From assembly GCA_023380475.1 (NCBI GenBank), contig JAMCRD010000003.1, forward strand, positions 28,397-92,396: DNA of 64,000 nt. Reading direction: 5' to 3'. The notes under the pieces were generated by a model. The model made no database searches and was not told the DNA's origin. It worked only from the letters and a program-made list of their open reading frames with translations. The number at the start of each line of letters is the position of its first letter. The stretch's first letter is position 1. Positions 41,510-64,000 of the stretch are shown here, piece by piece. The DNA comes from Patescibacteria group bacterium. Lineage in GTDB: Bacteria; Patescibacteriota; Minisyncoccia; UBA6257; Colwellbacteraceae. Position numbers and translations under genes: made by a program.

Positions 41510-41581
41510 CTGCGGGGCTAGGAGTCGAACCTAGAATTCCTGCTCCAAAGGCAGGCGTGTTACCAATTGCACCACCCCGCA
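41510..41581 (-). tRNA. tRNA-Gln (anticodon UUG)
   Basis: Hand-folded cloverleaf. Acceptor TGCGGGG/CCCCGCA has the U1-A72 pair and G73 typical of tRNA-Gln. Anticodon stem CCTGC/GCAGG, loop CTTTGGA. T-arm CTAGG-TTCGACT-CCTAG. No encoded CCA. Confidence 0.88.
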
Positions 41582-48877: not shown

Positions 48878-50024
48878 GTTGAGAGTATTGATGACTGGCG
48901 GCGGGACAGGCGGGCATATTTATCCGCTGGTCTCGGTTGCGGCTGAGCTTCAAGTATTGGCCGCCGAGAAGAAAATCAGCTTGGATATCCATTACCTCGG
49001 TGCCTTCGGACCGTTCCAAGAACTGCTCGAGCTAAACGGCTTGAAAGTAGGCCGCATCGCCGATAGCAGACTGAGACGTTATTTTTCGATGCGCAATTTC
49101 ATAGACGTTCCGAAATTTGGCTACAGCTTATTGCAAGCTGCCTTCAAGATGTTTTGGTTCATGCCAGATGTAGTTTTCTCGAAAGGCGGACCCGGAGCGC
49201 TGGCAGTTGTCTTGATTGCTCGCTTCTACCGGATACCGGTAATAATCCATGAGTCCGATTCTGTGCCAGGACTTACTAACCTTATCTCCGGTAAGTATGC
49301 CAATGTAATCGCGACTTCTTTCGAGTCCGCTTCGGTCTATTTCCCAAGCGATAAAATAGTGCTGACCGGCAACCCCATCCGCCGCTATATGCTGGAAGAT
49401 TTTAAAAAGGAATCGGTTAGCCGTAACAAGGGATTCCTCGGCTTCGATCCTTCTTTGCCTCTCATAACCGTGATGGGTGGTTCGCAAGGAGCTGCGGCTC
49501 TAAACGACTTCGTCATCGGACATCTGCGGGAGATATTGAATATAACGCAGGTTTTGCACCAAACAGGAACGGCCAACTACGACGATGTTGTGTCTAAACT
49601 TGAATCAGCCTCGGCGGGAATCGATAACGATCTGCTCAAACGCTACCGTCCCGTCGCTTATCTCAAAAATGATCTACGAGCTGCCTTTATCGCTTCTGAT
49701 TTGGTAGTCAGCCGCGCCAGCGGCGGCGGCATATTTGAACTGGCCGCTTTTGGAAAACCATCTATCCTCATACCACTGCCGTCGGACGTGGCCGCCGGAG
49801 ACCACCAGACCAAGAACGCTGCCGATTACTGCCAGACCGGTGCGGCTGTGATGGTGAAGCAGGACGAAATGCCCAGCCGTCTACTCAAAGAGGTTCAAAG
49901 ACTGCTAGCATCGCCGGCGGAATTAAATCAAATGAGTCAGGCAGCCACACGTTTTTCTAAGCCTGAGGCCGCTTTAAATATAGCCGAAACCGTCCTAAAA
50001 TTAGGAGGTTATGGTGAGAGTTAG
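48870..50024 (+). CDS. murG: UDP-GlcNAc:lipid I N-acetylglucosaminyltransferase MurG
   Basis: N-terminus TGGGTGGHIYP, IHESDSVPG and C-terminal SRASGGGIFELAA. Confidence 0.9.
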   Translation: MSKLRVLMTGGGTGGHIYPLVSVAAELQVLAAEKKISLDIHYLGAFGPFQELLELNGLKVGRIADSRLRRYFSMRNFIDVPKFGYSLLQAAFKMFWFMPDVVFSKGGPGALAVVLIARFYRIPVIIHESDSVPGLTNLISGKYANVIATSFESASVYFPSDKIVLTGNPIRRYMLEDFKKESVSRNKGFLGFDPSLPLITVMGGSQGAAALNDFVIGHLREILNITQVLHQTGTANYDDVVSKLESASAGIDNDLLKRYRPVAYLKNDLRAAFIASDLVVSRASGGGIFELAAFGKPSILIPLPSDVAAGDHQTKNAADYCQTGAAVMVKQDEMPSRLLKEVQRLLASPAELNQMSQAATRFSKPEAALNIAETVLKLGGYGES

Positions 50025-51402
50025 ATTCGCGCCTTCTCCGACAGGTTCATTGCATATCGGAGGAGCGCGCACAGCGCTATTTAACTGGCTGCACGCGAAA
50101 TCGCAGGGCGGTCATTTTATCCTTCGGATTGAAGACACGGACCGCGAGCGGTCCACCCCTGAGTCCGAGGCGGACATTTTGGAGGGGCTGTCTTGGCTAG
50201 GGATAACCTGGGACGAGTTCTACCGCCAGAGCGATCGGATTGGGATCTATCGCGAGTATCTTAAAAAACTTATTGATGACGACAAAGCGTATTACTGCTT
50301 CTGTTCCAAGGAAGACCTGGAGGCTGAACGGCAGGCGTTGGTAGCTCAAGGTTTTCCTCCCAAATATTCCGGCCGATGTCGCGCCCTCTCAAAAGAAGAG
50401 GTAGTCAAACGACTTAACGAAAATAAAGAACACGTCATCCGTTTCAAAGTACCCGAAAGGGAAGTGGTGTTTAAGGACTTAATAAGAGGCCAAGTGAAGT
50501 TCGACGCCTCGCTGTCGGGCGACGTCATAATCGCCAAAAATCTGGACCAGCCACTGTACAACTTTGCGGTAACTGTCGACGACTTTCTGATGGGTATAAC
50601 ACATGTGATCAGGGGAGAGGAGCACCTCTCGAACACGCCTAAACAGATACTGCTGGCTGAGGCTATGGGCATGAACGCACCGCAATTCGCACATCTTCCT
50701 CTCATCTTAAATACTGACCGCAGCAAGATGTCCAAGCGTATGTCTGACGTCGCCTTGCATGACTATCGTAACAAAGGCTATCTACCGCAAGCGATAGTCA
50801 ATTTTATATCCTTCCTAGGATGGCATCCCAGGGAGGACAAAGATATGATGAGTCTCGACCAGATCACATCCGAATTTGAGCTTAACCGCGTTCAGAAAGG
50901 CGGAGCTATATTCAATGTAGATAAATTGGATTGGCTGAACGCTCACTATATCAACAGCCTGACTCCTGAAGAGCTAGCCGGGATGGCTAAGCCCTTCATG
51001 CCTGAAGGGTACGAACTGACAATCGCGATGGCGGCCAGTGTAAAAGGGAGAATAAAAACCTTGGCTGAGATACAAGGCATAGTTGATTTGTTCTTCAAGC
51101 TGCCGGCGTATGATACTGAATTATTAAAATGGAAAGACATGCCGCTTTCACAGGTGACCTCTAACCTGGAGTCAGCTTTAACCGTGCTAAATAAAATAGG
51201 CGAGAGTGACTACAACCAAGCTAATCTCGAGAAGGTTTTATCACCGCTGGCACCGGAAGGGAATAGGGGAGAACTCTTCTGGCCGCTAAGAGTTGCTCTC
51301 TCGGGCAGTAAAGCTTCTCCCGGTCCATTCGAGATAATGGAAGTCTTGGGTAAACAGGAAAGCCTCTCCAGAATAGAGAAAGCCATCACTAAAGCTAGAT
51401 AA
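50011..51402 (+). CDS. gltX: Glutamyl-tRNA synthetase
   Basis: [22 protein letters not shown] (HIGH) and KMSKR (KMSKS) motifs. Confidence 0.93.
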   Translation: [463 protein letters not shown]

Positions 51403-51404
51403 AC

Positions 51405-52682
51405 ATGGTTCGTAAAATCATCCATAGCAGAGAAATGGCCAAGTTCCTGACCGCGACGGTTCTGCTGGTTAATCTCGCTACGCCTTTTACAGCGGCAGCT
51501 CAAACCGTGACGACTCAACCCACAGCTGCCTCCACCGCATCCCTGCAATCCGAGATCGACGCCAACAATCAGGCAATAGCTAACCTAAATGCACAGATAG
51601 CCCAGTATCAAGCTGAGATCCAGCAGGCTGGAGAAAACAAGAAGACTCTTCAGGCAGCCATCAATTCCCTCAACCTGCAACGCAAAAAGATACAAACACA
51701 AATATACGTCACTAAAGCCCAGATTAGTACCACCAACATCCAGATCCAGCAACTCGGCGACAGTATAGCCAGCACTACACAGATAATCGCCTCCGAGCAG
51801 GAAGCACTAGCCGCAGATATGCGTCTCTTAGAACAAGCTGATAATCAGGAACCACTAGCGATAATATTGTCTTCCGGCACTCTAGACCAAGCCTGGACCA
51901 ACGCTAACGCGGCTCTTCAAATTCAGGAAGCGATTCAAGAAAAGATGACTGCACTTAGGGCTCAAGAAGATAGCCTTACGACTTCCCAAACTGCTTCCCA
52001 AGTTAAACAGGCGACGCTTTCTTCACAGCAACAAACCCTGACCAAACAACAGCAGACCCTGACTGATACAGAAAAATCTAAGACTCGGCTGTTGTCCGAA
52101 ACGAACGCGCAAGAGTCCGTGTATGAACAACTCCTTGCCTCAGCCGAAGAGCAACTCAACAGCATTTCAACATTTTCAAAAAACGCTGGGGGATCAGGAA
52201 TCCTAGGAGATCAAACCCGATGCGATGCTTGGGGGTGCTATTATAACCAGCGCGATGCCGCCTGGGGCAGCGATCCGCTGGACGGCACGAGCTATACTCT
52301 CGCCAGCGATGGTTGCCTAGTAACTTCGGTGGCCATGGTCCTGACTCACTACGGCTATCACAATGTCACACCCGTGACTATAAATACCAACCCCAACAAC
52401 TTTGCGCCATACTTCCCAGCTTATTTGCTGACCACCATAAACGTTGATGGGACTACAGTCACCAGAGTCAGAGCGGCGATTGATGCCACACTGGCCACCG
52501 GTAACCCGGTGATAGTTGGCTTGCATGCCTACGGCGGCACCCACTTTGTAGTTTTGGTGAGCGGCAGCAAGGGTAATTACATCATGCGCGACCCATACAT
52601 AGAAAACGGCGACAATATTCTATTTGCAGATCACTATTCCCTAAGGAGCGTCTTTGCGGTAACCAAGGTACAAATAAGCTGA
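51405..52682 (+). CDS. Secreted coiled-coil protein with C-terminal papain-like (C39-like) cysteine peptidase domain, PcsB-like architecture
   Basis: Signal peptide ending FTAAAQ and a Q-rich coiled coil of about 230 aa. The C-terminal domain has candidate Cys (DGCLVTSVAMVL) and His (GGTHFVVLV). Confidence 0.6.
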   Translation: MVRKIIHSREMAKFLTATVLLVNLATPFTAAAQTVTTQPTAASTASLQSEIDANNQAIANLNAQIAQYQAEIQQAGENKKTLQAAINSLNLQRKKIQTQIYVTKAQISTTNIQIQQLGDSIASTTQIIASEQEALAADMRLLEQADNQEPLAIILSSGTLDQAWTNANAALQIQEAIQEKMTALRAQEDSLTTSQTASQVKQATLSSQQQTLTKQQQTLTDTEKSKTRLLSETNAQESVYEQLLASAEEQLNSISTFSKNAGGSGILGDQTRCDAWGCYYNQRDAAWGSDPLDGTSYTLASDGCLVTSVAMVLTHYGYHNVTPVTINTNPNNFAPYFPAYLLTTINVDGTTVTRVRAAIDATLATGNPVIVGLHAYGGTHFVVLVSGSKGNYIMRDPYIENGDNILFADHYSLRSVFAVTKVQIS

Positions 52683-52719
52683 TTTCCCATTTAAGACTAT
52701 ATATGCTATACTCTGTCAA

Positions 52720-52872
52720 ATGGGTTTGCAGACGCTGATAAACAATGTGACATCCACCGCTGCTACCATAATTGGTCCGGCCAAAACTATTCTCGTGTCT
52801 GTAACTCAGATCATCGTACAGATATTGCAATACATTGTTTACCTTCTTAATTTACTGATATCTAAGCTATAG
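52720..52872 (+). CDS. 50-aa hydrophobic micro-ORF (tentative)
   Basis: MGLQTLINNVTSTAATIIGPAKTILVSVTQIIVQILQYIVYLLNLLISKL. TATACT ends 7 nt before the ATG, and a terminator follows at 52892-52920. Confidence 0.3.
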   Translation: MGLQTLINNVTSTAATIIGPAKTILVSVTQIIVQILQYIVYLLNLLISKL

Positions 52873-52891
52873 CAAGATACCTACAAATAAC

Positions 52892-52920
52892 AAAACAGTC
52901 CTCCAAGAGGGGACTGTTTT
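52892..52920 (+). terminator. Intrinsic terminator
   Basis: AAAACAGTCC-tccaagagg-GGACTGTTTT. Confidence 0.75.
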
Positions 52921-52940
52921 TAGTATGGTATGATAAACCA

Positions 52941-53618
52941 ATGTTCACTCCTATAAGGAAAGTAAACGGGATATCTTATGAAAGAATAGCTGTTAAGACA
53001 CATCTGATAAGATTCGGGGAAAATCTTATAGGACTCCTCAAAAAATATGTTTCACCTGTTTTGAAGCCGGGGGATTGGTTAGCACTTTCTGAAAAAGTTG
53101 TGTCGGTAACGCAAAACAATATCCGCCATATTTCGACTGTAAAAGTTAGTTGGCTAGCCAAATTGATTGTGAGGGGAGTGAAGAAATACCCCGATGACAA
53201 AGGATGGGACAATCCTGAGAAAATGCAGGTAGCAATAGAAATGGCTGGTTATCCAAGAGCTATCCTAGCAATGTTGCTCGGCGGCATCGGGAAGGTGTTC
53301 CATATCCGTGGCATCTTCTGGACTGTCTTAGGGCACCGCGCTGGAGAACTTGATGGCTTCAATCCAGTGGTTCTTCAACCGTATCGAGAAAACGTCGCTC
53401 TACCGCCATCGCATCCAAGAGAAATGTGCGAAAGGATTGAACGAGAATTGGGCGCACCGGCAGTGATCATAGACGGCAATAACATCAATGTTAAAGTCAT
53501 CGCGATGAGCCACGGCATGCCAGTAAACACTAAGTTCGCTAGATTGGTGCTCTTGGACAATCCCATGGGGCAGGAAGATGAACTAACCCCCTTCATAATT
53601 GTGCGTAAGAAAGATTAA
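52941..53618 (+). CDS. CofE-like (F420-0:gamma-glutamyl ligase family) protein
   Basis: Family-like pattern: KPGDWLALSEKVVSVTQ, IIDGNN and a C-terminal NPMGQEDELTPFIIVRK (compare ..MGEGG.GIP.VVVRG). Confidence 0.5.
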   Translation: MFTPIRKVNGISYERIAVKTHLIRFGENLIGLLKKYVSPVLKPGDWLALSEKVVSVTQNNIRHISTVKVSWLAKLIVRGVKKYPDDKGWDNPEKMQVAIEMAGYPRAILAMLLGGIGKVFHIRGIFWTVLGHRAGELDGFNPVVLQPYRENVALPPSHPREMCERIERELGAPAVIIDGNNINVKVIAMSHGMPVNTKFARLVLLDNPMGQEDELTPFIIVRKKD

Positions 53619-54226
53619 TGATAATCACCTGGGCCGGCGTAAAGCCTATTTTTGCCATTCTCAGTTTGATCACCACCTTATGGGCTGTACTCCCGTATCT
53701 ACGCGACATATTTCTCAAAAAGACGAAGCCCCATGCTTACACTTGGTTGATCTGGACCATAACCCAAGGCACTGCCGCCGCTGGATTGATATATGGCAAG
53801 GGAGGATGGGGAGGCTTAGAACTGGTTGTTGGTACGGCATTGGTATTCATAATATTTCTTCTGTCTCTAAAATATGGCACACGCAGTATAACTAAAAGTG
53901 ACACCGTGGTGCTCATATTCGCGCTGCTAGCGATTGTAATATGGTGGCAATTACATAACCCGTTCCTTGCCGTGATCATGGTGTCAGCCATAGATTTTGC
54001 CGGCTATATACCAAGTTTCAGAAAAACATTTTATGAACCATGGACCGAGACACCATCTTCTTGGGCAATATTCTCGTTGGGCAATATTTTAAACATACTT
54101 GCTCTCAGCCAATATAATTTCCTGACGCTTACTTATCTTATTACGATTATTATTGCTAACGCAGTACTCTTGGCGGTCTGTCTTATAAGGAGACAAGTTG
54201 TACTCCCTGACGCACCTACTAAATAG
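53618..54226 (+). CDS. Polytopic membrane protein, unknown function
   Basis: 202 aa with about 6-7 TM helices. ATGA overlap with the upstream gene. Confidence 0.55.
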   Translation: MIITWAGVKPIFAILSLITTLWAVLPYLRDIFLKKTKPHAYTWLIWTITQGTAAAGLIYGKGGWGGLELVVGTALVFIIFLLSLKYGTRSITKSDTVVLIFALLAIVIWWQLHNPFLAVIMVSAIDFAGYIPSFRKTFYEPWTETPSSWAIFSLGNILNILALSQYNFLTLTYLITIIIANAVLLAVCLIRRQVVLPDAPTK

Positions 54227-54494
54227 GGGACTTATCTCAACAACCCATTCGGATTTTATATTTACGAAACTCCACGCAGATCTTTTCAGTTCAATTTACT
54301 TTTTCAGAATGTTATGTTGAGCTAACGTTGCTCATCCACATCGGCACGCCTCGCTGACTCTGCTAGAATAGCTACAGGGGAGCAGGTTAAGAACCTAATA
54401 TCAATCGTCGTATAATGGCTTTTATACGGCAAATTGCCCAAAAGAAAGCCACTTCTACTCCCCCCTAGGACAACTTAACACGAATATATGCCAT

Positions 54495-54520
54495 CCCGAC
54501 CTGAAAAGGTCGGGTTTCTT
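54495..54520 (+). terminator. Intrinsic terminator in junction region
   Basis: CCCGACC-tgaaaa-GGTCGGG followed by TTTCTT. A TATAAT lies at 54411-54416, about 80 nt upstream. Confidence 0.7.
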
Positions 54521-54545
54521 GGTTTAGAAAGGAAAAAACAATAAG

Positions 54546-54668
54546 ATGGATCGCAACAAAGTCAAGCAGCTAATCGGAGGGCTTACCTTCCTAGCTGCCT
54601 TTTTAATTCTTTCGTACGGTCTGCTGGTCGAGTTGGCAATTCTTAACGCAAGATGGTCTGTAAGATAA
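54546..54668 (+). CDS. 40-aa single-TM micro-ORF (tentative)
   Basis: MDRNKVKQLIGGLTFLAAFLILSYGLLVELAILNARWSVR. Overlaps the next ORF by 16 nt. Confidence 0.3.
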   Translation: MDRNKVKQLIGGLTFLAAFLILSYGLLVELAILNARWSVR

Positions 54669-54895
54669 AGGAAAAGTCCAACCTGTGCATCCACGGCTAT
54701 ACCTATGGATATTGCCCAGGGGGGTGCACGCAGTTCGTCGATACAAGGGAATATCTCAAAGAAAAGCGCCGAGAGTTCCTGAAGTTATGGGGTCCCAAAG
54801 ACTGGACTGACCCTATGACCAAAAAAACAATTTGTCTCAGATTAGTTAATTACGACAGATTGATCCGGATGGCGCCAGGAGTCGAAGCAAATTAA
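54653..54895 (+). CDS. Phage hypothetical protein, Cys-rich
   Basis: 80 aa, with C..C...C...C in its first 25 residues. No recognisable family. Confidence 0.45.
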   Translation: MVCKIKEKSNLCIHGYTYGYCPGGCTQFVDTREYLKEKRREFLKLWGPKDWTDPMTKKTICLRLVNYDRLIRMAPGVEAN

Positions 54896-54905
54896 CAACG
54901 GTCTC

Positions 54906-55002
54906 AATCGGGAGGGATGCGATCCCCCTCTAAGCGCTTCATAAGAGTGCCGGGAAGACTAGGAAGTTTAATCGGAGACGGTTGGCTTCCTCTCTCCCGA
55001 TT
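54906..55002 (+). promoter_or_regulatory. Operator-like repeated motif AATCGG(G)AG (two direct copies, one inverted)
   Basis: aatcgggaggga at 54906-54917, aatcggagac at 54970-54979, and an inverted copy tctctcccgatt at 54991-55002, just upstream of the ATG at 55020. Confidence 0.3.
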
Positions 55003-55019
55003 ACCAAGATTAAAAGCAA

Positions 55020-56012
55020 ATGAAAACATACACATACGAACCAACAAAACATCCTAGGCTCTTTCGCGTGGTAGACCGCGAGGGGAATTGGGAAAGGTAT
55101 TTCCTGACCGACCTTGTACCTGAAAAGGGCCGAGAAATATCGACCATGGGCGGAGTTTATCTTCGTGGCGTTACTACCATCCTTGATAAGGGATACGCCA
55201 AAGGAGAAGGTCTGTTACGCTTTCTGTCGCAGCATACCGAATCGGAAAGAGATGAGATCCTAAAGTCGGCTGGCGAGAGAGGTGACAAAGTTCACCGCGC
55301 TATTGCCATGCTCAGCGAAGGCTTAGGAACTCTCAACAAAACCGATGGGGTCTATAACCGTGAGATCAAAGAATACGAACCCTTGAGCAATGAGGAATGG
55401 GATTGTCTATTGGCTTTTGAGAGTTTTTGGAGAAGGCACGAACCGATAGTGTTGCAATCAGAAGCACCACTCTATTCGTTGGAAGGAGGGTACGCTGGGA
55501 CAGCCGATAAGATTTGGATCTTAACGAAAGCCTGTGATGTCAAGATGTGCCCTTGCAAGGACTGGATAAACCTCATCGGTCTGAACGATTACAAGACCAG
55601 TTCTGGTATTTACCCGAGCTACTGGGCTCAAGTCGGAGCCTACGCTAAAGCTGAGAACATCAAAGAGTATCTCCCAACGGGCAGAGTGATTGACTACACC
55701 TCGATCCTGCGGCTTGGCACAAACCACAAAACAACGGGAGGTTATGAGTTTCGGGTCAGCAACAGGCTCGGGGCTCAATATGAGTTGTTTGGGGCAGCCA
55801 AGACGATAGCCAACTATGAGAGCAATGAGTTCGATCCCTCCAAAGAGGTTCAAGAAATTCCTGATTCAATCACCATTGAATTGAAAAAGATGCCGGAGTC
55901 CGTCGAAACTCCCAAAGTCGAAAAGAAAAATGGAAAAGGTAAAAGAAATCAACCAAAAGCTGGGCGTAGTGCCAAAGCTAAGGCTGGGCACGCAGCAACC
56001 AGCCAAAAGTAA
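55020..56012 (+). CDS. Phage PD-(D/E)XK (RecB/Cas4-like) exonuclease
   Basis: Motifs GYAGTADKIW, LNDYKTSSG and QVGAYAKA (a QxxxY-type motif). Lys-rich tail. Confidence 0.65.
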   Translation: MKTYTYEPTKHPRLFRVVDREGNWERYFLTDLVPEKGREISTMGGVYLRGVTTILDKGYAKGEGLLRFLSQHTESERDEILKSAGERGDKVHRAIAMLSEGLGTLNKTDGVYNREIKEYEPLSNEEWDCLLAFESFWRRHEPIVLQSEAPLYSLEGGYAGTADKIWILTKACDVKMCPCKDWINLIGLNDYKTSSGIYPSYWAQVGAYAKAENIKEYLPTGRVIDYTSILRLGTNHKTTGGYEFRVSNRLGAQYELFGAAKTIANYESNEFDPSKEVQEIPDSITIELKKMPESVETPKVEKKNGKGKRNQPKAGRSAKAKAGHAATSQK

Positions 56013-56421
56013 GGACGGCAAGATCTACAACGCCATTGTTCCTAATGGTCCGCATCGATTAAAGTTTTTGGACGAACCAGTCGTCATTATAGCTAACATC
56101 AACGGTAAACCTGGGAAGGTCTTGAAATTCACAGTCGAAGAGAACGGCCAGAAGTTTCGTTGGATAGTAAAAATACTAAACGCCGAGGGACAGCCCAATT
56201 ATCTATTGGAACATCTTGAGCCTGTTATGGTCGGCGAGGAAAGAATAGTGGAGATGAAAAACAAGGGCGCTCGCAAGTTCATCGAGATCAGGAAGGTTGG
56301 AGAGGAATCAGCCTCGGAGGATGAAACCGATGAGATAGTCGATTACAAGGAGGATGAGGGATTGTCCGAAGACGAACTCAACGAGATGAGTCGCAGGGCC
56401 AAAGAAGATCTGAAAGAATGA
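55930..56421 (+). CDS. Phage protein with acidic C-terminal tail (possible SSB-like)
   Basis: 163 aa with a beta-rich core and a tail EESASEDETDEIVDYKEDEGLSEDEL. The start is uncertain because of an 83-nt overlap with the upstream ORF. Confidence 0.4.
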   Translation: MEKVKEINQKLGVVPKLRLGTQQPAKSKDGKIYNAIVPNGPHRLKFLDEPVVIIANINGKPGKVLKFTVEENGQKFRWIVKILNAEGQPNYLLEHLEPVMVGEERIVEMKNKGARKFIEIRKVGEESASEDETDEIVDYKEDEGLSEDELNEMSRRAKEDLKE

Positions 56422-56603
56422 AAGCCTATCTCATACAAATTGAAGTGCGTCTTTCCTCCAAATCATATTTTCAGACACTGGGAGAGTCGCGACAGAATTG
56501 CAGCTCAGCGGAGACCGCCTCCAGTAGGGCTTTGAGAGAACTCAGACATGAATTGAAAGGTCGGAGGATAGCCGAGTACAAGATCCATATCACCAAGTGC
56601 TAG
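56418..56603 (+). CDS. Phage hypothetical protein
   Basis: 61 aa with an ATGA-type overlap with the upstream gene. Confidence 0.4.
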   Translation: MKAYLIQIEVRLSSKSYFQTLGESRQNCSSAETASSRALRELRHELKGRRIAEYKIHITKC

Positions 56604-56702
56604 TTATCTGACTGGGGCGTCCGGGCCAGATTAAGATCAACACTCCAAGTATCTCGATCTCATCGGCGTCTTGGTCAAGGAGAATAAGCAAAAGGGGAAG
56701 CG

Positions 56703-57185
56703 ATGTACTACATAAATATATCAAACGGTCTGCTTAAAGATTCCCACCGTACAAGGATGGGAGAGGCTATTTGGGAGTTCATGTGGTTATTGGATCGTAT
56801 GACTAGCGAGAGCGAGGATGGCATAGGGAAAGTCTTGGGGGGCAGGCCGATAAAGATTGATGAAATAGCCTGTGGATTTCCTGTGCATAGGACAACGGTG
56901 ATCCGCAATCTCAAACGCTTGGAGAATGAAGGATACATCAACGTTATTCGGGCTCCTTACGGATTAGTGATAACTGTGAATAAAGCCAAGAAAAAGCTAG
57001 TGAGAGATGTTGCGAGTTTGCACAGAGATATAGCGGATACGCAACATCTAATTAGATATAGCAAAGACGCAACATCTAATAATACTAAACACTACTTAAC
57101 AAAGACTAAACAGTCGGCACGCCCTGCGGGCGTCGATGTTAAACCCCTTGAAGGCGTAAGAGGGGGAGGATTAAGGCATATATGA
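56703..57185 (+). CDS. Winged-helix DNA-binding protein (replication-initiator or regulator-like)
   Basis: The segment IDEIACGFPVHRTTVIRNLKRLENEGYINVIR is a wHTH recognition helix plus wing. Confidence 0.55.
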   Translation: MYYINISNGLLKDSHRTRMGEAIWEFMWLLDRMTSESEDGIGKVLGGRPIKIDEIACGFPVHRTTVIRNLKRLENEGYINVIRAPYGLVITVNKAKKKLVRDVASLHRDIADTQHLIRYSKDATSNNTKHYLTKTKQSARPAGVDVKPLEGVRGGGLRHI

Positions 57186-57279
57186 ACCAAATGCCCGAAA
57201 AATACGTTACGGGCAGTTAACAAAACTCTAGGCGGTTCGTCGATGCCGATTAATCAAGAATCAAAAGTCAAAAAACAAA

Positions 57280-57756
57280 ATGAACAAAAACGACATAAAC
57301 AACAACTGGGTAGAAATAGGATACAAGCAAATCCCCCAAAAGGTTTTCGACAAATACGGAGTCAAGCCGTTCGAGATAATGAAACGGAAGATGCGCAAAA
57401 AAGAGGGTCAAGTCTGGAACCTCATCTCTTACAATGACGCCAAAGAAGAAGCCGAGCGACGGGGCTGCCGTCTTCCCTCCGTTCAGGAGATGCTGGTACT
57501 GCTCGAATGGTACAAGCACGAGAAGGGGAACAAGGCGAATATCAGAGACAATCAATTTCTGGGCATAGAGGAGCTTTCATATAAGGAGTTTGTCTATCTG
57601 GAATGGGTGGAAGGACTAATTCCGTACCTTCGCGGTGGCGATTGGGGTAATGGCTCGGGTGGTGGGCCGTTCACGTTGAACCTGGATTGGGGCGCGGGCA
57701 CTACGAGCACCTATGTGGGTTTCCGCTGTGCCCGCAGCCGTAGAAATCCGAAATAA
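57280..57756 (+). CDS. C-type-lectin-fold (DUF1566 / FGE-sulfatase-like) domain protein
   Basis: SYNDAKEEAERRGCRLPSVQEMLVLL, and a C-terminal RGGDWGNGSGGG...YVGFRCAR resembling CLec-fold ligand-binding ends. Confidence 0.5.
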   Translation: MNKNDINNNWVEIGYKQIPQKVFDKYGVKPFEIMKRKMRKKEGQVWNLISYNDAKEEAERRGCRLPSVQEMLVLLEWYKHEKGNKANIRDNQFLGIEELSYKEFVYLEWVEGLIPYLRGGDWGNGSGGGPFTLNLDWGAGTTSTYVGFRCARSRRNPK

Positions 57757-57763
57757 AACGAAG

Positions 57764-58153
57764 ATGGAGCTTAAATTGACCCAACACGACATAATCAGGA
57801 ACTACCTCGACGGGAAGGGATGGGTGTACGAGTACAAAATCCGAGGGCTGGACACCGAGTGGGGCTTCATCGGGGCCAGAGGGGACAGGGACGTAAGGCA
57901 GATGATAAGGAACGGGGAACTGGAAGCCTCCTTTAACGGCAAATACCGAATAGTCAGATTGAAAAGGTCGCCGAGTCCAAGAGAACTAGCGGATGAACTC
58001 AACCAAGAAATTGAGGAGAAAGGCGGACAGGTTGTGGCAGATAAAATGCCAAGCCCTATCAAAGAGGTGTCTGGTATGCGGACGGCCGACGCAGGTATGC
58101 CATCACTTTTTCCCGAAGAGCATAGCGGCATCTCTTCGCTACGACATTTCTAA
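57764..58153 (+). CDS. Phage hypothetical protein
   Basis: MELKLTQHDIIRNYLDGKGWVYEYKIRG... The last 161 nt overlap the next gene in another frame. Confidence 0.4.
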   Translation: MELKLTQHDIIRNYLDGKGWVYEYKIRGLDTEWGFIGARGDRDVRQMIRNGELEASFNGKYRIVRLKRSPSPRELADELNQEIEEKGGQVVADKMPSPIKEVSGMRTADAGMPSLFPEEHSGISSLRHF

Positions 58154-58370
58154 CGGCGTTCCGTTATGCAACGTTTGCCATTTCAAGCTGCACAACGGAG
58201 ACCCCACCGTGGGGGCGAAGATACTGGAATTGAGGGGAGCAAAATGGCTGGAGGGATTGGAAGAGCGGCGCAAGGGGAAGGTCAGACCGACGGTGGGATA
58301 TTTCGAGAAAGTCATCGCCGACCTGTCTAACGAGACTGACGAGAAACAAAGAAAGGACAAAGAAAAATGA
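57993..58370 (+). CDS. NinG-like / HNH-type zinc-binding protein
   Basis: KKLRRKADRLWQIKC..CLVCGRPTQVCHHFFPKS...NGVPLCNVCHFKLH. Confidence 0.5.
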   Translation: MNSTKKLRRKADRLWQIKCQALSKRCLVCGRPTQVCHHFFPKSIAASLRYDISNGVPLCNVCHFKLHNGDPTVGAKILELRGAKWLEGLEERRKGKVRPTVGYFEKVIADLSNETDEKQRKDKEK

Positions 58371-58522
58371 AACAAAAAATGAAGAGGCTCACGGTGTGGG
58401 TAACGACGGAGAATCTGAAGCAGCTCGCCAAACTCGCCAGGGAGTCCAACAAGTCTCGGGTAATCAGGGGTTTAATCGTAAAGGCCGCAGGTGGGGGTTC
58501 CCAGTCGGAAAAGGTACGGTAA
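58367..58522 (+). CDS. Ribbon-helix-helix (CopG-like) protein, 51 aa (not in ORF track)
   Basis: MKQKMKRLTVWVTTENLKQLAKLARESNKSRVIRGLIVKA shows a beta-strand, helix, helix pattern. ATGA overlap with the upstream stop. Confidence 0.5.
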   Translation: MKQKMKRLTVWVTTENLKQLAKLARESNKSRVIRGLIVKAAGGGSQSEKVR

Positions 58523-58562
58523 AGACAAAAACAAAAGAGATGGACGATAATAAATTAGAAAA

Positions 58563-59009
58563 ATGAGGCAAATTAAATCAGCATTGGGAGAAGTATTGAA
58601 ACTCCTCAACAAGTCCTATAAAGATCAGGAAATCCGTGTTTGCGACAACTGTGGAGTCCCATTGATATGGACTTTTTGTTGGGCGTATCGCGAGAGATAC
58701 TGTCTCAACTGTGGGATAAGTGGCGCAATGCTGGGGACTGGCGAAGATGTGGAATTAACCAGCGAATTGAAGTATGAGGCAAGGGTGATAGATGACATCT
58801 GGAAAGCAATCTACAAAAATCTAGTGCCGCGTTCATCTTACAAACGGAATGGATGTAAGAAGTGTGAGGGAGAAGATCATAACAAACACCTCTCAAGGTC
58901 CGAAATTTTTAGAGATAAAACAGCGACGGAAATTCTCAAAAAATTAGCGGAGGGCTTCACCGTTAAAAGAGAAATTTTAGAAAGAGGATTATATCAGGGA
59001 CAAGTTTAG
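58563..59009 (+). CDS. Phage zinc-finger protein
   Basis: 148 aa with CDNCG...CLNCG and CKKCEGEDH. Confidence 0.45.
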   Translation: MRQIKSALGEVLKLLNKSYKDQEIRVCDNCGVPLIWTFCWAYRERYCLNCGISGAMLGTGEDVELTSELKYEARVIDDIWKAIYKNLVPRSSYKRNGCKKCEGEDHNKHLSRSEIFRDKTATEILKKLAEGFTVKREILERGLYQGQV

Positions 59010-59042
59010 GAACTGTCCGGAAAACATAATTAAGCCGAAAGG

Positions 59043-59249
59043 ATGGTAAAAACCGTTTACGGCATGAAATCTAAAATGACCGACCAAGAGTTCAAGGAAA
59101 AATGTGAGAAACATAGGGAAAAGCTTAAGGTGCTATTGAACTCCGGCTTCTTTGAGCTCAAAAATACCAAGGTCGAGGTGAACTTCGGGCCAAAGGGAGA
59201 GATAGGGGATTGGTCTATTGTCCGGCAGAGTGTGTACAAACGACCATGA
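59043..59249 (+). CDS. Phage hypothetical protein
   Basis: 68 aa ORF. Its 3' end carries a TGTACA-17-TATAAT promoter-like site (59232-59260). Confidence 0.4.
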   Translation: MVKTVYGMKSKMTDQEFKEKCEKHREKLKVLLNSGFFELKNTKVEVNFGPKGEIGDWSIVRQSVYKRP

Positions 59250-59340
59250 ATATGCTATAATACTCAAAACTGAATAAGTAAAAGTCCCAAGCGATAATAA
59301 GCCGGACATCTCGCAATGAGGTGGCCGGTATTTCATTTTT

Positions 59341-59778
59341 ATGGGAGCACCAAAGGGAAATCAATACGCAAAAGGAAATAAGGGAGGGCGCCCTCCGAAA
59401 GTAGAGCCGCAAAATCTTCCCGCGTTCGGTGAAGAACTGGTGTCATGGGCAACTCGGAAATACCAGACGCTTCTTTCGGCGCCCGACAAGGAGGCAAAAA
59501 TGCCCTTCTTCATCAAGACGTTCTGTCGGGAGTATAAAATATCGGAAGACACGCTCCAAGCGTACAGGGAGGCAAATAAAGAGTTTTCCGCCTCGTATAA
59601 GCAGGCAAGACAGATTATTGCTGAAGCACTCATGGTTGGAGCACTCAAGGGATGGTGGCATCCGACCGCTTTTATCTTCATCGCCAAGAATGAAACCGAA
59701 ATGAGAGATAACTCGTCGGTTGATCTCACATCGGGCGGAGAAAAGATTACGGTCAACCTGGTCGAATTCAAAAGATGA
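59341..59778 (+). CDS. Terminase small subunit
   Basis: N-terminus MGAPKGNQYAKGNKGGRPPK is typical of TerS HTH-type proteins. Lies upstream of TerL. Confidence 0.65.
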   Translation: MGAPKGNQYAKGNKGGRPPKVEPQNLPAFGEELVSWATRKYQTLLSAPDKEAKMPFFIKTFCREYKISEDTLQAYREANKEFSASYKQARQIIAEALMVGALKGWWHPTAFIFIAKNETEMRDNSSVDLTSGGEKITVNLVEFKR

Positions 59779-60314
59779 AACTCTCGGTTTTAATCTGTTC
59801 TTTGTCTTCACGAGGCGAGCATCTCGCCAAGTTGCTTTCGATCTTGTTTCCCCAAATTCAGGAGGAGACTGAAATTATCGTTTCCATTGACGACGGAGGA
59901 CAAAAAATAGGTGTCAAACGCAATAGGTTGATGGCATCGGCACTGGGCCAGTATGTCTGTTTTATCGATGACGATGACGAGGTGAGCGACGACTATATTG
60001 CCCAGATTATGACCGGCATCGAATCCGGTGCCGACCACGTGGCAATAGGCGGCATTATGACGACGAATGGCAGAGAACCACACGAATTCAGAAGCTCGAA
60101 GGATTATGTCTGGCATGAAAAAGACGGCGTCTATTATCGCGGCGTCCAGCATCTGGGAGTGATTAAGCGTGATCTGGTACTTCAATGTCCCTTCCCTCCG
60201 ATCAGTTTCGGGGAAGACCGCGAATTCAGCGAGAGGGTAACGCCGCTAATCAAGACAGAGTACCAAATCCAAAAGCCGATTTACTTCTATCGATACCGGA
60301 ACCCGAAATGCTGA
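59775..60314 (+). CDS. Glycosyltransferase family 2 (small, phage-encoded)
   Basis: LSVLICSLSSR.., KRNRLMASALGQYVCFIDDDDEV (DxD) and FGEDREF. ATGA overlap with TerS. Confidence 0.75.
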   Translation: MKLSVLICSLSSRGEHLAKLLSILFPQIQEETEIIVSIDDGGQKIGVKRNRLMASALGQYVCFIDDDDEVSDDYIAQIMTGIESGADHVAIGGIMTTNGREPHEFRSSKDYVWHEKDGVYYRGVQHLGVIKRDLVLQCPFPPISFGEDREFSERVTPLIKTEYQIQKPIYFYRYRNPKC

Positions 60315-60964
60315 GTGTCATAATGCCGGTCTATAATCACGTTCTCTACACCTATCGGGCCGTAGAGTCGCTCCTTGAACACACTGCTGCGCCAGCTAGG
60401 CTCATTATGATTGACGATGGCTCGACCGATGATACGCATGATTACGCTATGGAACTTTCGGATCGGCTGAAAGAGAGATTTTATTATGGCCGAAACCAAA
60501 AGAATGAGGGTGTCCACTACAGCTGGAATGCAGGACTACGCGCCGCTTTCGACCAGAATTCAGATTATATCGCCATTGTGAATAACGATGTCCTCTTCAC
60601 AAAGAACTGGGATTCGCCCCTCATCAATGCCCTAAAAACGAAGAAGCTTGTGAGTCCATATCATACGGATGGCTCATTGCCGGATGATTGGCCGTCCGGG
60701 AGCCGCAGGATTGCGAACCAGGGTAACTTGCCGATTCTGGGCGCTTGTTTCATGGCACAAACGCAGACATTCAGGGATGTGGGCTTTTTCCCCGAACAAA
60801 TGCGGTACTACTTCGGAGACAACTGGCTGGTGCGACAGGTCGGGGAACAGCAATGTACCCAGGTGCCCGAAAGCTACATCCATCACTATTTCTCGAAAAC
60901 AACGAGTGAACTTCAGAATGATTTTTGGTTCAAAAAAGACCAAGAAGAATACTTGCGGCTATGA
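60308..60964 (+). CDS. Glycosyltransferase family 2 (second, phage-encoded)
   Basis: MLSVIMPVYNH..LIMIDDGSTDDT..IAIVNNDV. ATG 60308 overlaps the upstream stop by 7 nt. The track start at 60185 is out of context. Confidence 0.75.
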   Translation: MLSVIMPVYNHVLYTYRAVESLLEHTAAPARLIMIDDGSTDDTHDYAMELSDRLKERFYYGRNQKNEGVHYSWNAGLRAAFDQNSDYIAIVNNDVLFTKNWDSPLINALKTKKLVSPYHTDGSLPDDWPSGSRRIANQGNLPILGACFMAQTQTFRDVGFFPEQMRYYFGDNWLVRQVGEQQCTQVPESYIHHYFSKTTSELQNDFWFKKDQEEYLRL

Positions 60965-62241
60965 CAATTCAATTCCCCACCCAAGAATTTATCGACTCTA
61001 TACGACCTTACCAATCCGAGTACCTTTCGTCTCCCCAGAAGAATAACGTGCTTATGTGGCACAGAGGCAGCCGCAAGACCACGACACTGCTCCAAAAATT
61101 GCTTATTTCAGCGCATCGCGAGGTTGGTCTCTACTGGTATATCGGGCCCTATCTTACCCAGGCGCGATCGACGATATGGACAGACCCAGCAACGCATATT
61201 TTCCGATGGATACCATCGGACTATCTGAAGCGGTTACGCGTCAATAACAGCGAGATGTCGATAACATTCCCGAACGGAAGCGTCTTGCAGGCCAAGGGAA
61301 TGGACAATCCGAATGGACTCCGTGGCCCTAAACCGAAGGGGGTTGTGCTCGACGAATACGGTGAAATGGCGAAGCGGTGGGGCAGCGAACCTCGTGAAGC
61401 CATCATTGAGCCGTCCATGCTCTCGTCGGGGGGCTGGACTGACTACGCGGGGACGCCGAAAGGAAACAATGATCTTGCGCACCTTTTACGGCGGCAGGAT
61501 TATTTCGCGTCTCTCAAAACAGTCGAAGATACGGGTGTGTATTTGCCGGAGCAGATTGAGGAATTGAAGCGGAATGCCGTCAATATAGATTTCTTTTGGC
61601 AAGAATACTACTGCAAAATCATCGAGGGAGCCTCAAGCGTTTTCAAAGACATCGAGAATGCCGTCTCGGGAGAACTGGAGAAGCCGCAGAGTGGCGAGGA
61701 GTATCTTTTTGGAATTGATTTAGCGCGGAGTTTTGACGCGACTGTCCTCGTCGGTTTCAAAATATCCACCAATCATCTCGTGTACTACGAGAGGATAAAA
61801 GATAGAACGTGGGAAGCGCAGAAAAACCTCATCGCCGGTACGCTCGCTTCGTACCATGGCGCGCGGGCTATTGTTGACGCAACGGGTGTGGGCGATAGTT
61901 TCACAGAAGAGTTGATGAGGATGGGACTCAATATCATGCCTCTTAAGATCGCCAATAACCTCATTAAGCGGAATCTGGTCGAAAAACTCGGTTCTTACCT
62001 TGAAAACAGATACATCACCATTCCCAGCATTCAAGAAATGATTGACGAATTGAAAAATTACGAGTATGTGCTTACGGCAAGTAACAATATCGTTTACTCG
62101 GCCCCATCCGGCAAGCACGACGATGTCGTAATGGCGTTGGCGCTGGCAGTTTCAGCTCTCAATCCCACGCCTTTCGTTGTTTCCCAAAATGCTTTTGTTC
62201 CGCCGGTTACTATCGACCCCAGAACGGGTTATATTGTATGA
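60961..62241 (+). CDS. Terminase large subunit
   Basis: Walker A-like HRGSRKTT, Walker B VVLDEYGE, and nuclease motifs GIDLARSFDATV and GKHDDVVMALALA. ATGA overlap with the GT2 gene. Confidence 0.85.
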   Translation: MTIQFPTQEFIDSIRPYQSEYLSSPQKNNVLMWHRGSRKTTTLLQKLLISAHREVGLYWYIGPYLTQARSTIWTDPATHIFRWIPSDYLKRLRVNNSEMSITFPNGSVLQAKGMDNPNGLRGPKPKGVVLDEYGEMAKRWGSEPREAIIEPSMLSSGGWTDYAGTPKGNNDLAHLLRRQDYFASLKTVEDTGVYLPEQIEELKRNAVNIDFFWQEYYCKIIEGASSVFKDIENAVSGELEKPQSGEEYLFGIDLARSFDATVLVGFKISTNHLVYYERIKDRTWEAQKNLIAGTLASYHGARAIVDATGVGDSFTEELMRMGLNIMPLKIANNLIKRNLVEKLGSYLENRYITIPSIQEMIDELKNYEYVLTASNNIVYSAPSGKHDDVVMALALAVSALNPTPFVVSQNAFVPPVTIDPRTGYIV

Positions 62242-62432
62242 ACGAAGAACTACGTTGCAAATTATGCGGTAAATTGTTGGGCAAGGGATTGCAGTTAGGG
62301 GGCATTGTAGCCATCAAGTGCCATCGGTGCGGTACCATCACGGAGTTCGGGAATAAAATCGTCCACTATATCGTTCGTACCGAAGCGGGCGAGGAGTTAG
62401 GGCTCTTGACACTGAAAAATAAAAAGATATAA
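62238..62432 (+). CDS. Com-like zinc-finger protein
   Basis: LRCKLCGKLLGKG...IKCHRCGT resembles the Mu Com pattern RC..C.KLL...I.C.RC. Confidence 0.5.
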   Translation: MNEELRCKLCGKLLGKGLQLGGIVAIKCHRCGTITEFGNKIVHYIVRTEAGEELGLLTLKNKKI

Positions 62433-62468
62433 TGACAATATAAAATAATAAGTTTTGAGTGCCTTTGA

Positions 62469-62491
62469 GCGCCAGAAGTGGCGCTTTTTTT
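62469..62491 (+). terminator. Hairpin plus T-run between the Com-like gene and portal
   Basis: GCGCCA-gaag-TGGCGC followed by TTTTTTT. Confidence 0.7.
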
Positions 62492-62496
62492 GTTGT

Positions 62497-64000
62497 ATGA
62501 AAAAACCATCGGCACAAGAAATACTCAATCAATTTCGCATCGAGAAACAGGCAGCCTCGAAGACTCGGCAGTCGAAGATGTCCCATTGGCTCCAAAATGA
62601 GGAGCTTCACAATGGCGTTATTCAGCGAACTCTTTTGACGAAATCAAATCTTCATGTCCCGAAAGTGTTTGAGGGGGTACAAGATATGGCGTCCCGTCTC
62701 GGGGAGTTACCGACTATCGAATACGACACAAAGCCGGAAGGCGATGAAAATGCAGCAGATCTCATGAAGCATCTGTTCTTGTATGACGGCAGGAAATCAG
62801 ATTTGGAACACTTATGGGAACTGTCAAAAATCGAAGCGGGTCTCTATGGGCGTCCCATTTACAAACTGTTTCCATCACCGAACGGCGTCGCTTTCCAGCT
62901 TATCGATACGATGAGTTTTCTCATTTCTCCGCTTTCGCCGACGATAGATTCCGCGCTTTATTGCGGTCAGCAATTCATCTATAAGACGGCAGCGCAGCTG
63001 ATGGAGGAGGCCGAAGAATACGGTTACGACAAGAAAGAGGTGATGAAGGCTCGCAAAGCCGTGGCCGAAACCATCTCATCGGAAAATCCGGAAGTGAGCC
63101 AGCGCAACCTGCGGCTTGCCTATCTCGGTTTTGACAATGTGAACCTCGCAGGAGCGAAAGTCATCGAACTCACGGAATGGTACACGCATCTTGTGAACGA
63201 AAAGGGGTTGCCGGAAAAATATCTTCTCACCGTCGCGAACGACCAGTTCCTGCTTCGCGCCATTCCGATAACTGAAGCGGGGTTTGAGGATAAATTCCCG
63301 TTTATTTCGCGGGCGCTTTTCCCGCGTCTCGTCTCGTTCTGGGTTCCGTCAGTCGCGGATATCTATCGCGATCCGAACTTGGCGATGGATGTGATTATGA
63401 ATCAGAACATCGACAATAATACCTACCGCAATTTCGGGATGCTCTTTGTCGATTCGGCCAGCGGTCTCAAGCAATCCGCTGTCGTTCCGCGCCCCCTCGG
63501 CGTTGTACCGATCAATGTCGGAGCGAAATCGGTTAAGGACGCCGTGCTGCCATATAATCCGCCGGATATTTCGCAATCTACCGCCTTATCCAGCCAGATT
63601 GAAACGCTCTCTGACAATGCGGCCGGTCTCGGTTTCGTGCTTCCCATGGGACGGGCAAAAATGTCGGTCTCCCAATTAAACCTCGAAATGTCGCTCATTG
63701 AACAGCGATTAAGCACGTCAAAGATGAACCTCATCGCGATGGCAAAGGATATGGGCCAGATGTACGCCGATCTCATCAAGAAGAACCTTACGACTCCCCG
63801 GGCAGTCAAAACCTTCGGCATGAAAGACCTCACTATCTCAGGAGTTACGAAAGCGAACTTTAAGGGCGTTGACTTCATTGCAAAGGCGACTGCGAAGGAG
63901 AATGTCCAGCAAAACAAGGCGCTCTGGCAGAAATCAATTCAGGCTCTCTTCGCGATGTTCAAGGACGACCAGAACATCCCCAATCAGCGCTATCTCCGCG
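62497..64000 (+). CDS. Portal protein, 3' end outside window
   Basis: Frame open from ATG 62497 to the window end, about 500 codons by hand translation (MKKPSAQEILNQFRIEKQAASKTRQSKMSHW...). It lies right after TerL and is absent from the track because it has no stop. Confidence 0.65.
   Translation, partial: MKKPSAQEILNQFRIEKQAASKTRQSKMSHWLQNEELHNGVIQRTLLTKSNLHVPKVFEGVQDMASRLGELPTIEYDTKPEGDENAADLMKHLFLYDGRKSDLEHLWELSKIEAGLYGRPIYKLFPSPNGVAFQLIDTMSFLISPLSPTIDSALYCGQQFIYKTAAQLMEEAEEYGYDKKEVMKARKAVAETISSENPEVSQRNLRLAYLGFDNVNLAGAKVIELTEWYTHLVNEKGLPEKYLLTVANDQFLLRAIPITEAGFEDKFPFISRALFPRLVSFWVPSVADIYRDPNLAMDVIMNQNIDNNTYRNFGMLFVDSASGLKQSAVVPRPLGVVPINVGAKSVKDAVLPYNPPDISQSTALSSQIETLSDNAAGLGFVLPMGRAKMSVSQLNLEMSLIEQRLSTSKMNLIAMAKDMGQMYADLIKKNLTTPRAVKTFGMKDLTISGVTKANFKGVDFIAKATAKENVQQNKALWQKSIQALFAMFKDDQNIPNQRYLR

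Follow-up and report, generated by a model that had tools for sequence, protein, structure and literature searches.

A 64,000-nucleotide stretch of contig JAMCRD010000003.1 (positions 28,397 to 92,396), assigned to a Patescibacteria group bacterium of the candidate phyla radiation (CPR) and referred to here as the window, passes near its right end from cellular genes into phage genes. With high confidence, window 54407-64000 can be described as the left third of a temperate tailed phage of ~29.5 kb that is integrated in the chromosome of a Patescibacteria host. The prophage, whose insertion point is directly upstream of murC, a cell-wall gene, is genuine and apparently complete, and its virion was probably podovirus-like. 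In window-equivalent coordinates, it spans from the left attachment site, attL (54407-54430), to the right one, attR (83954-83977), which corresponds to an element of 29,547 bp with one core copy counted; a further ~20 kb of phage thus lies beyond the window end. Four features expected of a Caudoviricetes prophage were found, namely hallmark genes, host DNA on two sides, an internal integrase, and a direct repeat at both ends. The hallmarks comprise TerL (phrog_2), portal (phrog_1216, SU10_portal), and an HK97-type major capsid protein (phrog_1357, PF25209). Host DNA borders the phage block on the left (murG, gltX, and others) and on the right (murC, a gene for a 253-aa protein, and bPH_2). 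The genetic code of the prophage is standard, its long genes being read with table 11 without in-frame stops.

Extent and junctions of the prophage

The remainder of the phage was recovered from public assemblies. Briefly, the exact TerL protein led to a 34-kb Logan contig of run SRR10278331 (L001), which matches window 50961-64000 at 100% identity and contributes 8 kb more, with the rest of the portal gene, the scaffold, the major capsid, and tail genes. A homolog search with a 507-aa tail protein fragment gave no match, and a genome-contig scan with the tail protein found nothing. SCLI03000438.1 (L017/L021), which was obtained by a metagenome scan with the last, incomplete protein of L001 (L021 via a look-up of the endolysin-like protein), is 100% identical to the end of L001 but longer, and reaches the endolysin, holin, and integrase genes and murC. 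A preliminary description of the window had proposed that the contig be extended in search of structural genes, lysis genes, an integrase, and a matching repeat, all of which were found to the right of the window.

Each end of the prophage carries a 24-bp palindromic site. attL (54407-54430) reads GTCGTATAA-TGGCTT-TTATACGGC, with 9-bp inverted arms and a 6-bp spacer, while attR (L021 13159-13182, equivalent to window 83954-83977) reads GTCGTATAA-TGTATG-TTATACGAC and ends 7 nt before the ATG of murC. The two sites are identical at 20 of 24 positions (17 of 18 in the arms) and share an exact 11-bp core, GTCGTATAATG (window 54407-54417 and L021 13159-13169), which was the top direct repeat between the junction regions; beyond it, these regions have no repeat of more than 10 nt in common. 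The 24-nt att pattern has one match in the 64-kb window and none in 100 shuffles (chance expectation 0.00). It occurs exactly once in each locus covering either junction, and its copies in a 92-kb composite are the two att sites only. An internal gene for a 281-aa tyrosine integrase (L021 11935-12780) lies ~380 bp from attR, which places it ~28 kb rightward of the left junction and 19 kb outside the window.

With regard to the left junction, the flanking genes are cellular, in line with the preliminary description, which had called this flank ordinary cellular DNA: murG, gltX, genes for a C39-like peptidase and a CofE-like protein, and, as the last host gene, one for a 202-aa multi-pass membrane protein (53618-54226, + strand) with no Pfam or PHROG match. 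The exact membrane protein occurs on four public contigs with an identical downstream junction in all of them, and a 75% relative is present in a Saccharibacteria metagenome-assembled genome (MAG). It is followed by host intergenic DNA (54227-54406), the left part of the former murC upstream region, with promoter-like matches at 54341-54369 and 54387-54416, the second of which uses the TATAAT inside the att core. A terminator-like hairpin (CCCGACC-TGAAAA-GGTCGGG with a T-rich tail; 54495-54514, + strand) lies just inside the left end of the phage, and the promoter-terminator unit noted earlier at this junction is indeed present as a promoter-like and terminator-like pair. No integrase gene or tRNA is located at the left junction, and the Rfam scan of the window returned nothing there. 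A tRNA as the integration target was ruled out, as the sole tRNA of the window, tRNA-Gln (41509-41581), is 13 kb away. The previous statement that the junction has neither integrase nor tRNA therefore stands, but its claim that an att site is also missing does not, given the palindromic site at 54407-54430.

The preliminary description had left room for an assembly chimera, in which a free phage genome was misjoined to a Patescibacteria contig. The tetranucleotide correlation between host and phage parts is indeed 0.45-0.66, compared with 0.90 within the host and 0.89 within the phage, and several public contigs break inside the phage or at its edge. Such a break had been named as a sign of mis-assembly; it exists but is normal for a prophage, and the GC content of the host and phage parts is near equal (47.0% vs 47.9%). 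On the other hand, Logan contigs of three separate runs (SRR10278331, SRR10244963, and SRR10252151) reproduce the left junction with 100% identity, and the NCBI MAG GCA_023476555.1 also has it, at 99.6% identity, with the differences elsewhere. The right junction occurs both in GCA_004028595.3 (SCLI03000438.1) and in a Logan contig of SRR10244963. In addition, att sites match at both ends, and the host genes of both flanks are contiguous in a phage-free relative described below. The recurrence of both junctions in separate assemblies is therefore taken to exclude a chimera, which in combination with the empty-site relative leaves this explanation extremely improbable.

Some further features of these assemblies were recorded. 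The contig of GCA_023476555.1 differs from the window only in a small group of changes within murG, in an N gap and its surrounding bases, and in a block of mostly third-position changes in the terL 3′ half. The NCBI MAG contig JAMCXC010000012.1, otherwise nearly identical to the window, has ~55 mostly third-position substitutions in the terL 3′ half (window 61383-62236) and ends at the terL stop codon. This variant suggests that the phage population of the sampled community is mosaic or microdiverse. Logan contigs of two runs start within 5 nt of each other (window 49987-49991), in the murG/gltX overlap, which may reflect strain variation or a repeat. The end of an SRR10278331 Logan contig (L022) corresponds to L021 13158-13188, and its last 31-mer starts at the last phage-specific base, so that the other 30 nt would be common to an unoccupied attB. 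If Logan assembly uses k = 31, as we take it to do, this end may reflect the merging of an attB path from non-lysogens, although a variant at the next base would end alike.

The site upstream of murC and a model for integration

The murC neighborhoods of five relatives, whose MurC proteins are 64-79% identical to that of the lysogen host, were compared with the prophage junctions. In all five, GTCGTATAATGTATGTTATACGAC is located directly upstream of murC and is 100% identical to attR, whereas the remaining murC intergenic DNA is merely 25-64% alignable. One relative, L037 (MurC 72% identical), represents an empty site: its gene order is amidohydrolase-ftsW-murG-gltX-...-site-murC-253aa-bPH_2, it has no phage genes, and it resembles both prophage flanks at 72-79% protein identity. 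The host flank at 54227-54406 is, among the aligned flanks, most similar (45.9%) to the one left of this empty site. To the left of the core, AATC|GTCG is common to L037 and attL, whereas attR has AACA|GTCG. In a second relative, L039 (MurC 64% identical), genes for peptidoglycan (PG)-binding proteins, an endolysin, an integrase, and a small open reading frame (ORF) are followed by the site and murC, and the L039 integrase is 37.5% identical to that of the murC-site phage described here. The presence of both prophages at the same site therefore indicates that a phage family uses the murC-adjacent palindrome as attB in at least two host species.

The identity of the host is consistent across the flanks. 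The closest named relatives of murG, gltX, and murC belong to Patescibacteria, as do the named matches among the best 120 MurC matches, and relatives of the CofE-like and membrane proteins are found in MAGs of Patescibacteria and Saccharibacteria. A 120,197-bp NCBI contig labelled Patescibacteria group bacterium carries both the exact endolysin and MurC. The idea that a physical link between phage and CPR genes would provide a host assignment is thus supported by Patescibacteria flanks on both sides and by the empty-site relative.

Several other loci were inspected. A Patescibacteria MAG with a 77% identical CofE-like protein (L014) was rejected as an empty site, its synteny stopping right after that gene. 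In a sister species (L025 3467-7870, and L026), a 4.5-kb island encoding a P4 cII-like protein, a Beta_protein, an M78 peptidase, a HigB toxin, and two small ORFs lies between alr and the murC leader, while in a close relative (L042 2258-3520) alr directly precedes this leader. The interval from alr to this leader forms another variable spot beside murC, separate from the palindrome: the island was rejected as a second element at the same palindrome because ~100 bp of conserved murC leader lies between them, and an apparent degenerate copy of the palindrome flanking the island is actually the 3′ end of alr.

A simple scheme can be proposed for the insertion. The phage integrase would have recombined attP (...CTGCTAACA GTCGTATAATG GCTTTTATACGGCAAATT...) with host attB (...AATC GTCGTATAATG TATGTTATACGACATATATA-murC), with the crossover falling inside the shared 11-bp core or at its right edge. 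The predicted attB junction would be ...ATCAATC-GTCGTATAATG-TATGTTATACGAC-murC, and the predicted attP junction ...CTGCTAACA-GTCGTATAATG-GCTTTTATACGGCAA.... Since the spacers of attP and attB differ (TGGCTT vs TGTATG), the recombination may exchange one strand pair beside the shared arm, in the style of Xer-dependent integration, as the comparison of the sites suggests.

The 11-bp core includes a TATAAT that belongs to a promoter-like element directly upstream of murC. On the host side, a -35-like TTAAGA is located 18 nt upstream of the TATAAT, an arrangement also present in L037. After integration, the promoter-like element formed by the host -35 side and the core would point into the left end of the phage and meet the hairpin ~80 nt downstream, so that the hairpin (54495-54514) would stop read-through from the orphaned host promoter into the prophage. 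At the right end, the phage has GCAAGA 18 nt before TATAAT, a further promoter-like site (TTGACG...TATACT), and a purine-rich stretch similar to the host leader. From the GCAAGA-18-TATAAT arrangement and the purine stretch, the phage appears to rebuild the upstream region of murC, its right end supplying replacement sequence for an essential gene.

A number of points weigh against the interpretation as an integrated temperate phage. No repressor or excisionase was recognized in HMM searches of the phage proteins. Neither an unoccupied attB of the same strain nor a circular attP of the same phage was recovered among the indexed contigs, so that attP and attB as given above are reconstructions. 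Similarly, the exact exonuclease protein was found on three contigs, all three in the integrated arrangement, with no circular or excised form, and the support for the junctions consists of assembled contigs rather than read coverage or spanning pairs. Moreover, the exact att repeat is just 11 nt long (E = 0.64 in the raw junction-vs-junction search). The case for the att sites rests on their palindromic architecture and on the comparative data, and part of the resemblance between attL and attR could stem from promoter convergence because the core contains TATAAT.

Taken further, the last two points would make the palindromes unrelated promoter elements, the short repeat enclosing a consensus -10 box and the true attachment sites lying elsewhere in the junction regions. 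This appears very improbable: both copies have the full 9+6+9 architecture with the identity given above, the junctions have no second repeat of more than 10 nt in common, the similarity to the empty-site relative has its boundary precisely at the core (host side AATC|GTCG), and L039 has the end of its related prophage at this site too. The missing repressor and excisionase and the lack of an attP or circular form would also fit a defective or domesticated remnant that can no longer excise or form particles, and the unlike spacers of attL and attR could lower excision efficiency, as in CTX-type elements (PMC5357621). However, the replication, packaging, capsid, tail, lysis, and integrase modules are all present with intact long ORFs, and the catalytic residues of the integrase are intact. 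Furthermore, close but distinct relatives occur in other metagenomes (L018, ~80% nucleotide identity; L002, 78% in TerL), and a mosaic TerL variant exists in the same population, which together point to an actively evolving phage lineage. We therefore favor a complete temperate phage and regard the remnant as improbable.

The integrase and the possible identity of its target with dif

The integrase matches PF00589 (65.2 bits; cutoff 27.1), PF13495 (29.5 bits), and phrog_1 (1.4e-25). Its best curated families are NF040815 XerA (2.3e-32), TIGR02225 XerD, and TIGR02224 XerC, and its best solved structures are XerA 4a8e and 5hxy. In the alignment with XerA 4a8e, the motif pairs LRISEL/LRVSEL, HSYRH/HQLRH, LHH/LGH, and RLY/QIY conserve the catalytic Arg, HxxRH, His, and Tyr. 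Nevertheless, the protein falls below the equivalog cutoffs of XerA, XerD, and XerC (112.6 vs 220, 80.5 vs 329.6, and 79.3 vs 335 bits, respectively). Its sequence marks it as a small phage integrase of the Xer-like type that lacks an arm-binding domain. It shares the two-domain layout and catalytic residues of XerA, XerC, and XerD, but is phage-borne, and the empty-site relative L037 has no such gene near murC.

The region around the integrase gene also contains short repeats. ACGARCGTT is present in four copies within 1.2 kb around int, compared with just three copies scattered over the other 90 kb. The four are located at L021 11886-11920, 12780-12790, and 13005-13015, equivalent to window positions 82681, 82704/82707, 83575, and 83800; one of them is the palindrome ACGAACGTTCGT, and each adjoins a TTGAC(T/G) promoter-like hexamer. 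These repeats are candidate operators or accessory binding sites for the control of int.

The Xer-like character of the integrase raises the possibility that the palindrome is the chromosome dimer-resolution (dif) site of the host lineage, into which the phage would integrate in the Xer style of VGJ-phi and CTX-phi, with one strand pair exchanged across non-homologous spacers, but by means of its own XerA-like recombinase. We consider this reading unlikely, though a real possibility. The site consists of two inverted arms around a 6-bp center, which is the dif architecture according to PMC5357621. Its 24 nt are 100% conserved among loci with 64-79% identical MurC while the flanks diverge, and the integrase finds its best curated and structural matches in the Xer families named above. 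The attP and attB spacers differ at three of six positions, all away from the shared core, which is the VGJ-phi pattern; in that phage, attP is homologous to dif1 only in one arm and the neighboring part of the spacer (PMC5357621), and the attP and attB described here are alike in this respect. The half-sites of GTCGTATAA-TGTATG-TTATACGAC can be extended to 11-bp arms as in dif, with imperfect outer positions. The dif site of Escherichia coli is GGTGCGCATAA-TGTATA-TTATGTTAAAT, and the inner arms and spacer of the murC-site palindrome (ATAA-TGTATG-TTAT) match it closely. The same arms, with varied TGTnnn spacers, also occur away from murC on eight IMG/VR contigs.

Against dif stands the constant placement of the palindrome, whose distance to the start codon of murC is 7-17 nt in every relative. 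It also includes a TATAAT, preceded at 16-18 nt by a -35-like hexamer, which would fit a murC promoter or leader at least equally well. There is no inversion of GC skew at the site (-0.039 on the left and -0.032 on the right), the integrase is far below the Xer equivalog cutoffs (112.6 vs 220 for XerA), and a literature search on dif in Patescibacteria yielded nothing. The full proposition, namely that the conserved 24-31-nt palindrome at murC is dif and that a tailed temperate phage family targets it with a phage-encoded XerA-like recombinase, is accordingly graded as rather doubtful. If true, this family would be the self-sufficient, tailed equivalent of the filamentous phages among the integrative mobile elements exploiting Xer (IMEX), and the site would offer a first handle on dif/Xer biology in CPR bacteria.

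The eight IMG/VR viral contigs (L029-L036) carry palindromes of the form GTCGTATAATGT-nnn-TTATACG, with a T after ATG in all eight, a full GAC arm in 6/8, and spacers that include TGTGTA, TGTCGA, TGTATT, TGTATA, and TGTGTG. Neither an integrase nor murC was found beside these palindromes in the examined contig pieces, and one contig (L036, with poly(A) polymerase and PI-PLC genes) looks like a giant-virus fragment. Elsewhere in the window, a perfect 9+6+9 palindrome, TAACCTTGG-TTAATA-CCAAGGTTA, is located at 28832-28855, close to a turn of the GC skew from positive to negative at ~27-28 kb.

Gene content, relatives, and meaning of the phage

From left to right, the phage genes are arranged as recombination/replication genes, terS, two GT2 glycosyltransferase genes, terL, com, portal, scaffold, major capsid, and virion/tail proteins; after a 1308-aa virion protein come a minus-strand pair and the genes for an ATP-grasp protein, an endolysin, an 82-aa holin-like protein, a 132-aa protein, the integrase, and a 55-aa ORF, followed by murC. 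In the ORF map of 50-64 kb, all plausible genes between 54.6 and 64.0 kb are on the + strand and form a continuous array from 54.65 kb, in agreement with the plus-strand run of overlapping genes in the preliminary description. Overlaps of 4 nt occur at 56418/56421, 58367/58370, 59775/59778, 60961/60964, and 62238/62241. The phage functions assigned in the preliminary description (RecB-like nuclease, winged helix-turn-helix (wHTH) protein, NinG-like HNH, TerS, TerL, Com, and portal) are backed by HMM matches, including those to TerL and portal that it had singled out for such a check, whereas its ribbon-helix-helix (58367-58522) and acidic-tail calls found no support in Pfam or PHROG. The two GT2 genes that lie between terS and terL are also missing from its gene list.

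The first sizeable phage ORF (54653-54895) encodes an 80-aa Cys-rich protein with no significant Pfam or PHROG match and is absent from public gene calls. It is followed by a 330-aa exonuclease of the PD-(D/E)XK/RecB-like type (55020-56012; phrog_298, E = 4.6e-19), a protein with an acidic C-terminal tail (55969-56421; 150 aa in the ORF translation and in public records) that has no HMM match, and a 61-aa ORF without matches (56418-56603), which overlaps the preceding gene by 4 nt. A DnaD-like replication/helicase-loader protein of 160 aa with a winged HTH (56703-57185) matches phrog_7498 (E = 2.5e-25), its wHTH Pfam matches being weak and below cutoffs. The next protein, of 158 aa (57280-57756), has a C-terminal FGE-sulfatase-like motif (phrog_2889, 1.5e-7; PF03781, 16.7 bits, below cutoff). 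The NinG/Rap-like HNH endonuclease of 125 aa (57993-58370) is identified by Pfam HNH (28.5 bits; cutoff 21.4) and phrog_5034 (2.4e-7). Its ORF overlaps a preceding 129/146-aa ORF, which ends at 58153, by 160 nt in a different frame, and public gene calls for window 57764-58370 list the 129/146-aa ORF and a 54-aa ORF and leave out the HNH gene. A 51-aa ORF (58367-58522) with no significant match and a 148-aa Cys-rich, zinc-finger-like protein (58563-59009) with sub-threshold matches only complete this early part.

The packaging genes begin with TerS (145 aa; 59341-59778; phrog_606, 4.5e-9; GP3_package, 23.4 bits, below cutoff). The two GT2 glycosyltransferases that follow are a 179-aa protein (59775-60314; PF00535, 36.6 bits; phrog_8858, 8.5e-35), encoded by an auxiliary gene or moron, and a second one of 213 aa according to public records (60323-60964; PF00535, 80.5 bits). 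TerL (426 aa; 60961-62241), whose ATG overlaps the stop of the preceding gene by 4 nt, matches phrog_2 (7.4e-34) as well as Terminase_6N (25.8 bits) and 6C (31.2 bits), both above cutoffs. A Com-like zinc-ribbon protein of 64 aa (62238-62432; PF10122, 27.2 bits, cutoff 22.9) precedes the portal gene (62497-64000; phrog_1216, 2.3e-9), which the window truncates; the complete gene extends to window-equivalent 64212, and its full-length product in L001 matches PF23899 SU10_portal.

Beyond the window, the major capsid protein matches phrog_1357 at 2e-50, the endolysin is of the C1-peptidase/PG-binding type, and the 55-aa ORF between the integrase gene and murC encodes a basic protein. murC itself, beyond attR, has all three Mur ligase domains and is followed by more cellular genes. 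The minus-strand pair of the late region encodes a 54-aa membrane protein and a 329-aa secreted PG_binding_1 protein and, together with the gene for the ATP-grasp protein (449 aa; distant PurD likeness, TIGR00877 7e-14, far below cutoff), occupies L021 7033-9622, equivalent to window 77828-80417. Conservation in the related contig L018 extends to both the pair and the ATP-grasp gene, which are likely to be auxiliary genes or morons. Genes for a tape measure, tube, or sheath were not recognized, which is compatible with a short-tailed virion.

Judged by its proteins, the phage lineage is distant from all deposited phages. Its major capsid protein shows 32-34% identity, across 93% of the length, to those of the Bacillus megaterium phages Pascal and Pony, and TerL is at most 30% identical to those of deposited phages, the nearest being Tunturiibacter phage Tunturi_4 and Thermus phages; these identities are too low to support assignment to a family. 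The gene order, the two GT2 genes, the ATP-grasp protein, and the C1-peptidase endolysin distinguish this phage from deposited ones. The nearest relatives are uncultured contigs (L018, 76-93% aa identity; L002, 78-84%). In L002 (1275-2921), the homologue of a 129-aa protein is encoded directly upstream of terL, while the phage described here has it beside the endolysin, a relocation that indicates module shuffling within the lineage. IMG/VR scans found no relatives of the exonuclease and integrase, distant matches only for the endolysin, one truncated contig for the ATP-grasp protein, and no free-phage attP.

The mode of insertion resembles known systems in part. As in lambda-type integration, an internal recombinase gene is located beside one att site, the core is duplicated at both ends, the host target is short and conserved, and the phage end appears to restore the displaced sequence. 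In contrast to lambda-type phages, the integrase is small (281 aa) and Xer-like and lacks a separate N-terminal domain for arm binding, attL and attR have unlike 6-bp spacers where the lambda-type overlap region is identical, and no excisionase was recognized. The dif-shaped attP and attB are shared with IMEX such as CTX-phi, VGJ-phi, and TLC-phi (PMC5357621). However, IMEX lack a recombinase and rely on host XerCD, whereas this prophage and that of L039 carry their own and thus do not belong to IMEX; the named IMEX phages are also filamentous while the present one is tailed, and its target is a candidate dif.

Prophages of Patescibacteria have been described before. Absconditicoccaceae prophages with flanking predicted att sites were reported (bioRxiv 10.1101/2024.03.08.584096), and in a groundwater survey 63.8% of 1,162 Patescibacteriota-linked phages were scored as temperate (PMC12911398). 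The published prophages are likewise tailed phages in a CPR chromosome, bounded by att sites and directly linked to their hosts, so that the kind of object is known and current understanding is unchanged by the find. The present prophage differs from the published ones in its standard genetic code and in its host lineage, which has Saccharibacteria-like relatives rather than Absconditabacteria, and no statement on integration at a murC-proximal palindrome was found in either report. The prophage provides a case of integration in the immediate 5′ region of an essential cell-wall gene and, for a tailed-phage lineage that is otherwise unclassified, a firm physical link to its host, in a group with very few experimentally tractable phage-host pairs. 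Its ends are defined at the base level, one relative has the site empty, and another has a diverged prophage there, so that it is usable as a reference case for lysogeny in CPR bacteria.

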